This document shows positions 28,754-31,549 of a DNA stretch of 64,000 nucleotides, piece by piece. Each line of letters begins with the position of its first letter. The first letter of the stretch is position 1. The position numbers and the translations under genes were made by a program. Origin of the DNA: a virus (Duplodnaviria > Heunggongvirae > Uroviricota > Caudoviricetes); the IMG/VR virus record IMGVR_UViG_3300032268_000658; one strand, given 5' to 3'. The notes beneath the pieces are model-generated. The model did no database searches. It was given only the letters and a program-made list of their open reading frames with translations, and was not told where the DNA came from.

Positions 28754-29293
28754 TTATTCTAATATTAATTGTCCTGGATTTTTATTTCCAGAGTCTGTAA
28801 TTAAACGATATGTTTTTATTTCACCTAAATCAGGGAACTTAACAGCTTCAACTAAAATCCCCCATTTAGCAACTTCATCATTCACCGCAGGAGTAACAAT
28901 GTTTGTTAGGTCAACTAAATCATCCCAATTAGTAGTCTCAACAATATCACGAATAATACCTTGAGTCATATCTACTAATACGTCATTAGCATGCATTACA
29001 TTCAATAAGAAACTATGAACATTAACAACATGGTACCTAACTATTGAAGTTAGAACCACTGAACGTTCGTCTAATGTAGTAAGAGTTTGAGGACTCAAAT
29101 TAACGGTTTGCGTTATGACAGGTGTAACCCAAATCTTATCAAAAAATGGAACCTTCCAATTTAATCCAGGAGAAACGACACGATGAAATCTACCCGTCTT
29201 AAGATGAACCCCCATTTCCCATTGGTCCACAATTTTAAATGGAAGAATGTCATGAATAAAGGTTACTACGAGGTCAATTAGTTTGTCAAACAT
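28754..29293 (-). CDS. Hypothetical protein
   Basis: ORF. Confidence 0.5.
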   Translation of the reverse strand: MFDKLIDLVVTFIHDILPFKIVDQWEMGVHLKTGRFHRVVSPGLNWKVPFFDKIWVTPVITQTVNLSPQTLTTLDERSVVLTSIVRYHVVNVHSFLLNVMHANDVLVDMTQGIIRDIVETTNWDDLVDLTNIVTPAVNDEVAKWGILVEAVKFPDLGEIKTYRLITDSGNKNPGQLILE

Positions 29294-29345
29294 ATATTTT
29301 GGTTTTGTTGAATATCAAAGATAGGACTATTTGGGGAATTTACCA

Positions 29346-29376
29346 AATAAAAAACCCCGACGTAGAAACGTCAGGG
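29346..29376 (-). terminator. Intrinsic terminator (minus strand) closing the ORF-free region
   Basis: ccccgacg-tagaaa-cgtcaggg hairpin preceded on the plus strand by aaataaaaaa. Confidence 0.6.
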
Positions 29377-30590
29377 TTAGTTTGGCATTCAGGTTGAGAA
29401 TACACCTTTCAATGAGAGACTTTACAGGAGATTATTTTGATTCCTCCGATTTCCACTTCCTTTTGAGAAGTACCTCTCAGTCACGGTCAATTAGATTAAC
29501 CAATCCTTAAGTCGTAATATACTCTATTCTTACTCATCACTCTTCTAGGTTGCCACCCAAACTCATCCTTGCGGGATTAGAGAACTTTCAAAACAATCGT
29601 ATCGGGTTTGGGACCCTTTACGGCCATGAACAACTCATGACTAAGTAGTGACCTGTCTACCACGACTGACGAACACTTTTCCTTTTAGTTTTTAGTTTTC
29701 ACCATTGAAAGTAAAAGTTTGATTTGTGGATGATAGATGTAGCGGTCCGTCAAACCAGCTGTCCCATCTTTTGAACGAGACAATACTGAACTACACCTTG
29801 AAGTCTCCCGACCTCCATATTTCAAGTCTACTTCATAACTCCTACCTTGGTAGGTGAAGAGTAAGGAGAACAACAGCACCACCTGTACGAACTCTTACCT
29901 TTCGGTTTTAAGTCTACTCTAATATTGAACCCCGCAATTATATAGTCGGATAACCATACTTCTCACAACAGTTCTACGAGTTATTCTTATCGGAGTTCCC
30001 TCCTCAACCAAACGACCCACATCGCTTGATTATTCGACCACTTTCCCTAAAGTGTTACCCTCAATACTCAAGGTCAAATAATATCTCGTTTGTCTACTCG
30101 AGCTCCGTTACCAAAGCCGCAACCGTTCCAATCAAGAACAAGTCACTTTATACCACTTTCATGGTTTATTTTATGGACTATAGACCGCCCAATTTCTTTA
30201 TTTCTATCTCAGAATCAACCCGAAGGTCTCATCATCAACATGTTTCAAGAAAATATTTTATATTCAAAGAACGTATTCAAAATTAATGAAGGAGAAAGGA
30301 ATCTTTACGACCCACCGAAGTAGGAACATTTACAACCCCTCTCCTTCATTTGTTTTACAAAGATAAGAATGTTTTGGGAAACAATCAAATTTTTATAAAA
30401 CTTTTTTTTGACTGATGATTTTAACGAATTCATTCTTCCTTGATAGTATCATCTAACTATCTTGTTGACCCCCTACTCTCAATAGGACGGGCTAATTCGT
30501 CTGTTTGTCAAAGAAACAATCAGTTTTACCTGAAAGTTTGTTTTGGGTAGGGAACCTCGATTTTACGAACCTACGGTCAACCTCTCCCAA
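29377..30590 (-). ncRNA. Candidate large structured non-coding RNA(s), ~1.0-1.2 kb (GOLLD/ROOL-like class hypothesised)
   Basis: No ORF of 90 aa or more on either strand; local GC ~45-50% against ~30% in the flanks; many UUCG/GAAA-capped hairpins on the minus-strand reading; two canonical promoters (TSS ~30590 and ~30350) and a terminator at 29346-29376 on the same strand; adjacent to a tRNA. Confidence 0.4.
30358..30389 (-). promoter_or_regulatory. Bacteroidetes-type promoter (TTTG-N20-TATCTTTG) inside the ORF-free region
   Basis: caaagata at 30358-30365 and caaa at 30386-30389; part of a 3-copy ~45-bp direct repeat. Confidence 0.5.
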
Positions 30591-30598
30591 TTGTTTTA

Positions 30599-30630
30599 CA
30601 AAGATATGAATAACTTTTCAATTAATCAAA
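30599..30630 (-). promoter_or_regulatory. Bacteroidetes-type promoter (TTTG-N20-TATCTTTG), repeat copy 2
   Basis: caaagata at 30599-30606 and caaa at 30627-30630. Confidence 0.5.
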
Positions 30631-30662
30631 TTCTTTATGAAAAATAGTTAAACTATTTTTTG

Positions 30663-30734
30663 TTGCGAAGGATGGATTCGAACCACCGACCTAAAGGTTA
30701 TGAGCCTTCCGAGCTACCACTGCTCTACCTCGCG
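30663..30734 (-). tRNA. tRNA-Met (anticodon CAT) with a C1xA72 mismatch (initiator-like); tRNA-Ile(LAU) cannot be excluded
   Basis: Folded by hand: acceptor CGCGAGG/CTTCGCA, D-arm GAGC-AGTGGTA-GCTC, anticodon arm GAAGG-CTCATAA-CCTTT, T-arm GGTGG-TTCGAAT-CCATC, discriminator A. Confidence 0.8.
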
Positions 30735-30902
30735 ATATAATTTCAAAAGATTACTTCCCACTTCCCCACGGTCACCTATCCACGTCATGCGCTGGTTGTA
30801 CCAGCGGGTGTAATCAATATTTTAATGTTAAAGAACTTAGTTAAAAAATCCCACGATTCAAAAGTTTTCTCAAACAATATTCTCGTGGGATGTGTTGTCT
30901 CA

Positions 30903-30934
30903 CAAAGATAAGAATAAATTCTCATTCAATCAAA
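30903..30934 (-). promoter_or_regulatory. Bacteroidetes-type promoter (repeat copy 3), likely driving the tRNA
   Basis: caaagata at 30903-30910 and caaa at 30931-30934, ~160 nt upstream of the tRNA 5' end. Confidence 0.5.
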
Positions 30935-31126
30935 TCTTTTTAACGTGAAACGTTTTGGGGTGTTCGTCCTTTCGGACATGGATATATAAATATCTCCAAT
31001 GTTTACAAAGTATAATAAACTTTACGATTTAGTCAAGTTTATCAACAATTTTTTTGATTTGACGGTTCATACTGATAGTACCAACTATCCCGACAAACAC
31101 TAATAAAGCAAATCCAATTAATACTA

Positions 31127-31549
31127 TCATGTTAATATAATTTCTGCGAGTCTGTGGAAGTAATCTCCCGAAGTCTCAGGTTTAATTTCATCTAAAGTAA
31201 AGTATCCAGAGTCAGTGTGTTCTTCACCGTCAATAGCATTAACCAAATCAGGAATGATTGGTTCCTCTACTTCTAATAAATACACGTACATCAACCCTTT
31301 AACTTTTTTACCGTCACGAGTGTGTCTTGGAATAAGTCCGATGAACTGAAGTTCTTTATCATCAATGTTCACGTCAGTCTCTTCTAAAAACTCTCTCTTT
31401 GCCCCTTCTTGAGGTGTTTCCCCATTATCTTCCATCTTTCCTCCAGGGATTGACCACATACCAGGACTTGAGCCTTGGCTATTTCTCTTACATAAAAGAA
31501 TTTTGTCCCCACATTTAACCATTACACCGACGTGTCTTTTGTTTTCCAT
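31127..31549 (-). CDS. Nudix hydrolase
   Basis: Nudix box GGKMEDNGETPQEGAKREFLEETDV (GX5-6EX7REUXEEXGU). Confidence 0.75.
   Translation of the reverse strand: MENKRHVGVMVKCGDKILLCKRNSQGSSPGMWSIPGGKMEDNGETPQEGAKREFLEETDVNIDDKELQFIGLIPRHTRDGKKVKGLMYVYLLEVEEPIIPDLVNAIDGEEHTDSGYFTLDEIKPETSGDYFHRLAEIILT

Follow-up and report, generated by a model that had tools for sequence, protein, structure and literature searches.

A GOLLD RNA gene of the env-38 type beside an initiator-like tRNA-Met in an uncultured low-GC phage

The 64,000-nucleotide (nt) stretch of Caudoviricetes DNA in IMG/VR record IMGVR_UViG_3300032268_000658 (as a whole "the window" hereafter) carries on its minus strand a large RNA gene of the GOLLD family, a family assignment that we regard as practically certain. 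The segment from 29391 to ~30205 is very probably an env-38-type GOLLD gene of ~800-815 nt that belongs to an uncultured low-GC phage with, most likely, a host among the Bacteroidota. The locus is a further member of a known RNA family and of its env-38 subtype, with a solid annotation, and an identical copy is already found on an IMG/VR viral contig (L123; 100% over the 1661-base query). A sequence-only reading of the window had singled out a GC-rich, hairpin-dense region of 1.2 kb next to a tRNA-Met as a candidate large phage RNA, possibly of the GOLLD or ROOL class. Its observation and interpretation were essentially correct apart from the GC content, the length of the RNA body and the number of promoters: a large RNA is indeed encoded there, but its body covers ~0.8 kb (29391-30205) and the rest is made up of leaders, the tRNA and a separate candidate small RNA.

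Results

Both halves of a GOLLD RNA are present

The RNA body comprises two domains:

29391-29798, minus strand: GOLLD 3' domain, the universally conserved half of the family (408 nt; Rfam RF02032)
29799-30205, minus strand: GOLLD 5' domain (407 nt; homology and covariation), its core from ~30190, where the env-38 construct has its 5' end

In an Rfam scan of the whole window, model RF02032 matches 29391-29798 (minus strand) with 328.9 bits against a gathering threshold of 150 (E = 1.8e-93), and the match spans model positions 1-416 of 416, so that it is not truncated, includes the long-range helix and has no pair flagged as non-canonical. Only two matches reach the gathering thresholds across the window, the tRNA and GOLLD. 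The sequence-only reading had left the choice between RNA classes to such a covariance-model search, which settles its proposal in favor of a full-length GOLLD with the strand, promoter orientation and tRNA context that it had described, while the models of ROOL, HEARO, OLE and introns are unmatched both at gathering threshold in the whole window and at E <= 1 in 29250-31150. Inside the 3' domain, an unpaired, A-rich linker of ~66 nt (~29733-29668) aligns to the likewise unpaired model positions ~66-136, and ARAGORN detected no embedded tRNA in this linker.

The Rfam model represents only the conserved 3' half of GOLLD, and the upstream half was therefore examined separately. A search with nhmmer using 29799-30230 (minus strand) as query retrieved homologues on 124 fetched loci, where they abut GOLLD 3' domains and where the alignments begin at ~30200; overall, both halves have homologues on more than 120 viral contigs and in two huge phages. 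Sixty non-redundant full-length homologues measure 799-853 nt, compared with 815 nt for the window copy, and their aligned 5' domains were analyzed with RNAalifold. The resulting consensus structure consists of 21 helices with 109 pairs in total, of which 89 show compensatory double changes, and standard pairs fill 96.1% of the cells versus 36-41% if the pairing partners are slid by one to three columns; not one of 500 shuffles attains the observed value on any of five measures. This covariation, an analysis that the earlier reading had proposed, is evidence for the 5' half that does not depend on the Rfam model. Folding against shuffled controls, likewise suggested there, was informative in part: the minimum free energy (MFE) z-score of the 5' domain is strand-specific, with -3.5 on the minus strand versus -0.2 on the plus strand, but the 3' domain reaches only -0.5 and the leaders are ambiguous, with the wrong strand as low or lower. 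The RNA has a two-domain architecture of ~800 nt with a structured, less conserved 5' domain.

The closest structural reference is env-38, the sequence of which we took by machine reading from the supplementary material to Kretsch et al. 2025 (816 nt recovered versus the true 833 nt). It aligns to the window RNA end to end, with 62% identity in the 5' domain (env-38 residues 1-420) and 65% in the 3' domain. The two RNAs are alike in size (833 versus 815 nt), in an A-rich internal linker, in the 3'-terminal GGUGUAUUCUCAxCCU, in their position downstream of a tRNA-Met and in their origin from environmental phages. The window copy differs from env-38 in its phage lineage, which is a separate and uncultured one with promoters of the Bacteroidota type, and in the ~150-nt leader with a 5' stem-loop that precedes its body.

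The non-coding block and its flanking genes

The RNA gene lies in a non-coding block of 1.83 kb (29294-31126) that extends from the start of one minus-strand gene to the stop of another:

28754-29293, minus strand: SPFH/Band-7 gene (179 amino acids, aa), the only one of the ten largest or neighboring proteins tested to pass a Pfam curated cut-off
31127-31549, minus strand: NUDIX gene (PHROGs match)

As described before, the region is free of sizable open reading frames (ORFs): the longest one in 29377-30590 has 86 aa (30026-30286, plus strand), and none is larger across the whole block. The previously estimated GC content of 45-50% was too high, given that we find 40.6% for the GOLLD body, 38.0% for the span considered at the time and 43% for the top 300-nt window, with 32.8% for the window as a whole. 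Both tetraloop-capped stems quoted in the sequence-only reading are present on the minus strand. Of these, gagaccttcgggttgattctgagatag at 30228-30202 belongs to the leader and falls outside the conserved RNA body, and aaaaccgaaaggtaag at 29909-29894 is a GAAA hairpin of the 5' domain that hardly varies.

Promoters, leader and terminator

The following elements would delimit the GOLLD transcription unit and its neighbors:

30358-30389, minus strand: promoter 1, Bacteroidota type TTTG-N20-TATCTTTG, dedicated to GOLLD (exact motif and 48-nt repeat)
30206-30357, minus strand: GOLLD leader with a 5' stem-loop (30349-30286), a GTTCTTTGA motif at 30272 and a UUCG hairpin (30228-30206)
29343-29378, minus strand: intrinsic terminator 12 nt past the GOLLD 3' end (stem 29378-29353 with a 4-nt loop, then TTTTTATTT)
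29316-29347, minus strand: promoter 4, driving the SPFH/Band-7 gene (motif and repeat)
30599-30630, minus strand: promoter 2, Bacteroidota type (motif and repeat)
30903-30934, minus strand: promoter 3, Bacteroidota type, upstream of the tRNA (motif and repeat)

The promoters are part of a 48-nt repeat with four copies (29305-29352, 30347-30394, 30588-30635 and 30892-30939), each of which reads TTTG-N20-TATCTTTG on the minus strand. The three copies known from the earlier reading are real and 71-77% identical over the 48 nt, but the one at 29305-29352 had been missed. More generally, the window contains 20 instances of TTTG-N19-21-TAnnTTTG where 2.33 are expected (0 of 100 shuffles reach 20), and many of them are located directly upstream of minus-strand ORFs. 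The association with GOLLD extends to its homologues, as 34 of the 60 non-redundant loci carry a same-strand promoter motif 54-212 nt upstream of the RNA and none carries one in antisense orientation.

Downstream of the RNA body, the terminator proposed before is indeed a real one, with an 11-pair stem (6 G-C pairs) and a T run on the minus strand. A strict heuristic for perfect-stem terminators detects one behind only nine of 58 homologues. On the upstream side, leader length varies among relatives from 62 to 161 nt, and these align only from ~30200 on. A stem-loop of 12-15 bp directly after the GOLLD promoter is kept in structure across 13 loci while its sequence differs between lineages. 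A primary transcript of ~1 kb would run from ~30352 to ~29345, headed by a 5' stem-loop that would protect it and by a leader of variable length that may be trimmed off.

Several further observations concern the leaders of this block. A long stem-loop is found ~8-10 nt past each of the three RNA promoters (30349-30286, 30590-30545 and 30890-30849, minus strand). The one in the GOLLD leader has a conserved internal YGUAAAG motif, and hairpins of this type also follow promoter 2 of the window and promoter 1 of a related locus (L136), as if promoter and hairpin moved together as a cassette. Each of the three leaders also contains a single copy of GTTCTTT(G/A)A (30272 and 30836) or of GTTTCTTTGA (30517; all minus strand), and in relatives with short leaders (L138, L141, L143 and L147) GTTCTTT(G/A)A lies ~12 nt before the first GOLLD helix. 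This motif may mark a site of processing or be left over from the duplication of a module. In the stretch from the NUDIX stop to promoter 3 we noted a sigma-70-like TTGACT-N16-TATACT (31036-31009, minus strand) that is followed by two small hairpins, GTCCGAAAGGAC and AACGTTTCACGTT, within 30940-31036 on the same strand.

The upstream tRNA-Met and a candidate small RNA

Upstream of promoter 1 we annotated three more elements:

30662-30734, minus strand: tRNA-Met (CAU), probable initiator type (ARAGORN and Rfam, 62.5 bits, with pair 1:72 flagged as non-canonical)
30735-30902, minus strand: tRNA leader with a stem-loop TCCCACGA...TCGTGGGA at 30890-30849, then T6 at 30848-30843 (MFE z = -2.1)
30395-30598, minus strand: candidate small RNA, specific to this phage lineage, between promoters 2 and 1, with a core hairpin at 30488-30468

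The tRNA-Met, found by ARAGORN and Rfam alike in agreement with the earlier reading, is encoded ~460 nt upstream of GOLLD on the same strand. Bacterial initiator tRNAs are distinguished by an unpaired 1:72 position, an A11:U24 pair and an anticodon stem with three G-C pairs in a row. The window tRNA bears a C1xA72 mismatch together with A11:U24, but its anticodon stem has only two G-C pairs (G30:C40 and G31:C39) next to an A29:U41 pair; it closely resembles E. coli tRNA-fMet and is probably of the initiator type. Among the 60 non-redundant GOLLD loci, 28 have a tRNA-Met (CAU) on the GOLLD strand at most 700 nt upstream, nearly all with a mismatch at 1:72, and no other type of tRNA is recurrent in this position, with others being almost absent. 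By sequence, the hairpin and T6 in the leader of the window tRNA resemble a terminator or an attenuator.

The segment between promoters 2 and 1 may weakly be considered a separate small RNA gene. Its core, GTCCyAyTnnGAGTrGGrGGT, is confined to 18 syntenic loci, in each of which it precedes GOLLD by 160-270 nt, and the core hairpin shows an exchange of CCTA/TAGG to CCCA/TGGG. The candidate RNA would be 118-209 nt long with a covarying 5' hairpin and a run of A at its end; in all, two hairpins are conserved and four pairs are compensatory, in an alignment of only 12 sequences. It has no match in Rfam (scan of 29250-31150 at E <= 1). Whether the initiator-type tRNA-Met, the 120-210-nt small RNA and GOLLD form a conserved three-RNA cassette, each with its own promoter and all acting together, is doubtful in our view.

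Phage lineage, synteny and host

The window has phage-type genes and carries 58 of its 74 ORFs on the minus strand. Most of its large proteins stay unannotated in searches of ten proteins against Pfam and PHROGs, in which matches to DHH, LRR and RelB-like families are below the Pfam cut-offs. At the DNA level, no close relative turned up among GenBank phages, where the search returned only tRNA matches and two huge phages (~70% in the 5' domain). Similarly, tblastn against 50,697 phage records yielded nothing for an 812-aa protein of the window; with the SPFH protein, the tblastn matches were all remote and identified neither a cultured relative nor a host. Around 25 phage contigs are syntenic and share the order of tRNA-Met, promoter, short segment, promoter, GOLLD, sometimes extra genes, promoter and SPFH gene. 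The RNA cassette is nevertheless an accessory module in this phage lineage, because four relatives keep the SPFH gene without GOLLD or tRNA in the 4 kb upstream of it.

Regarding the host, Shine-Dalgarno-like motifs precede merely three of the 74 ORFs versus ~7 at random positions, and the leaders are 79% A+T. When contigs of a genome collection were searched with a 17-base pattern, 119 of 120 matches were due to chance and the sole genuine GOLLD was on a 7.4-kb contig (L207) that had been binned with a Flavobacterium metagenome-assembled genome (MAG). Together with the promoter type, the scarcity of Shine-Dalgarno motifs and this MAG make Bacteroidota the most likely host phylum, possibly Flavobacteriia within it. 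The two huge phages that share this GOLLD type (LR745206 and LR756502) have been predicted to infect Bacteroidetes, which we treat as a further lead to the same host phylum and not as a test.

Discussion

Comparison with known GOLLD and ROOL RNAs

The family features used for comparison are from Kretsch et al. 2025 (PMC12286853) and a 2026 review (PMC12990946). The cryo-electron microscopy structure of env-38 GOLLD (PDB 9MEE) is a closed, RNA-only cage of 14 subunits with D7 symmetry, which persists at nanomolar concentrations as well as at temperatures of up to 55 C and is built with inter-subunit contacts that are conserved or covarying across the family (PMC12286853). In these cages, the 5' domains form the caps, the 3' domains form the rings, and a disordered linker is found inside (PMC12286853, PMC12990946). 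Stoichiometries of 10, 12 and 14 have been described among constructs (PMC12286853, PMC12990946). GOLLD genes lie beside tRNA genes in phages and prophages, GOLLD expression goes up at lysis, some members embed a tRNA in their linker, and GOLLD bound ribosomes in pull-downs (PMC12286853, PMC12990946).

Within this family, the window RNA can be placed next to several relatives. The huge phages LR745206 and LR756502 (634-642 kb) encode full-length GOLLDs by Rfam (287 and 275 bits, respectively) with homologous 5' domains and adjoining tRNAs, including a tRNA-Met in LR745206; these RNAs are ~66-73% identical to the window RNA, but the surrounding genome is unrelated. GOLLDs of Streptococcus agalactiae (PDB 9L0R) and of Lactobacillales prophages belong to the same family and have the same conserved 3' domain (PMC12990946). 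They are, however, only ~700 nt long, lack several elements of the 5' domain and P21b, and form 12-mers, whereas the window RNA is of the longer env-38 type. The ROOL RNAs resemble GOLLD as large RNAs of phages and prophages that are encoded near tRNAs and assemble into an RNA-only cage (PMC12286853), yet they are unrelated to the window RNA in sequence and fold and give no Rfam match there.

Alternative explanations

A phage setting and a tRNA neighbor are also typical of ROOL, and a hairpin-dense region with GNRA and UUCG loops might in principle be another large structured RNA such as ROOL, HEARO/omega RNA, OLE or a group I or II intron, but we give this next to no credence given that GOLLD matched over its whole length at more than twice the gathering score. 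Even at E <= 1, the Rfam scan of 29250-31150 added nothing to GOLLD and the tRNA except sub-threshold hits of unrelated small families over the terminator or GOLLD, and the candidates ROOL, HEARO, OLE and introns are refuted by these scans. It is hardly more probable that the region encodes small proteins and that its structure is incidental. ORFs of 59-86 aa do exist, including two on the plus strand (86 and 77 aa) and one on the minus strand (65 aa), and as many as 33 of the 60 homologues have antisense ORFs of at least 50 aa over a part of the 5' domain, though the purine-rich sense strand would produce such open frames. Sense ORFs of at least 50 aa, on the other hand, do not cover any alignment column in more than 22 of the 60 sequences, and no ORF is conserved across the homologues, in which the longest one varies from 43 to 134 aa and differs in strand, position and length. 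A conserved small ORF, the finding that the sequence-only reading had named as fatal to its proposal, is thus not seen in this set. Column variability in the 60 homologues has no 3-nt periodicity (0.74, 0.72 and 0.76), 252 of 292 indel runs have lengths not divisible by three and would break the frame, and 89 of the 109 pairs covary. The GOLLD region is non-coding.

The gene context might alternatively suggest that the structured RNA is a long 5' leader or regulatory element of the SPFH/Band-7 gene, since GOLLD lies directly upstream of this gene in the same orientation and the synteny is shared by ~25 related phages. We consider this very improbable in light of the strong terminator and the separate promoter copy between the two, of the 1-2 kb of other sequence that intervene in several relatives, of the four relatives that have the gene without GOLLD, and of homologous GOLLDs in more than 100 unrelated phage contexts. 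A more serious but still unlikely alternative is that the RNA is a genuine GOLLD homologue that works as a monomer or with protein partners, so that the cage seen in vitro would not be the functional state. The variable stoichiometry among constructs would fit this idea, as would the absence of in vivo cage imaging from the two sources (PMC12286853 and PMC12990946), but the stability of the env-38 14-mer and its conserved or covarying contacts argue against it, as does the alignment of the window copy over both domains.

Proposed working of the RNA

We therefore return to an env-38-type GOLLD, which, on the grounds of its full-length homology to env-38, probably forms a cage of the same kind. 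Its two domains would fold separately, and copies of the RNA would assemble into a closed, RNA-only cage of ~14 subunits with the 5' domains as caps, the 3' domains as rings and the linker at ~29733-29668 facing the interior. The cage may be made during lytic growth, when it could sequester, store or shield a tRNA or a ribosomal component and in this way act on the tRNA pool or on translation. This guess draws on the recurrent linkage to a tRNA-Met of the initiator type, the presence of a tRNA inside some GOLLDs and the binding of ribosomes reported from pull-downs.

Several points weigh against parts of this picture. The GAAA hairpin AAAACC-GAAA-GGUAAG (29909-29894) of the window RNA does not have the 17-nt extension present in env-38, though the short form is the commoner one and occurs in 43 of 60 aligned homologues, and the MFE z-score of the 3' domain alone is unremarkable and uninformative. 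Oligomerization is extrapolated from 62-65% identity, and the streptococcal 12-mer indicates that the stoichiometry could differ. Four relatives (L132, L135, L137 and L151) have the SPFH/Band-7 gene and its promoter with neither GOLLD nor tRNA in the 4-kb upstream flank, suggesting that GOLLD is probably dispensable. The expression of GOLLD at this locus is a prediction from its sequence, the host assignment is indirect, with the binning of a 7.4-kb contig into a MAG being weak evidence, and a role in translation or tRNA metabolism is speculative for this copy as for the family.

Significance

GOLLD RNAs are among the largest and most elaborate non-coding RNAs of bacteria and phages, and the general picture of them since the cage was solved in 2025 is unchanged by this locus. 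What it offers is a cleanly delimited GOLLD transcription unit composed of promoter, 5' stem-loop leader, RNA body and terminator. Beyond that, the surveyed loci indicate that many "lake-derived" GOLLDs of the env-38 type sit behind Bacteroidota-type promoters and that GOLLDs of this type pair specifically with an initiator-type tRNA-Met. In the literature searched we found nothing that links GOLLD to Bacteroidota or Flavobacteria, and we therefore see the evidence on the promoters and the tRNA pairing as small additions, not discoveries. Both nevertheless narrow the hosts and the partner molecules to consider. If the tRNA-Met, the small RNA and GOLLD did act together, which we doubt, the recurrent pairing with an initiator tRNA would link the cage function of env-38-type GOLLDs to translation initiation; initiator tRNA or ribosomal subunits could, for instance, be stored or sequestered in the cage while the phage infects Bacteroidota, hosts that do not use Shine-Dalgarno sequences.

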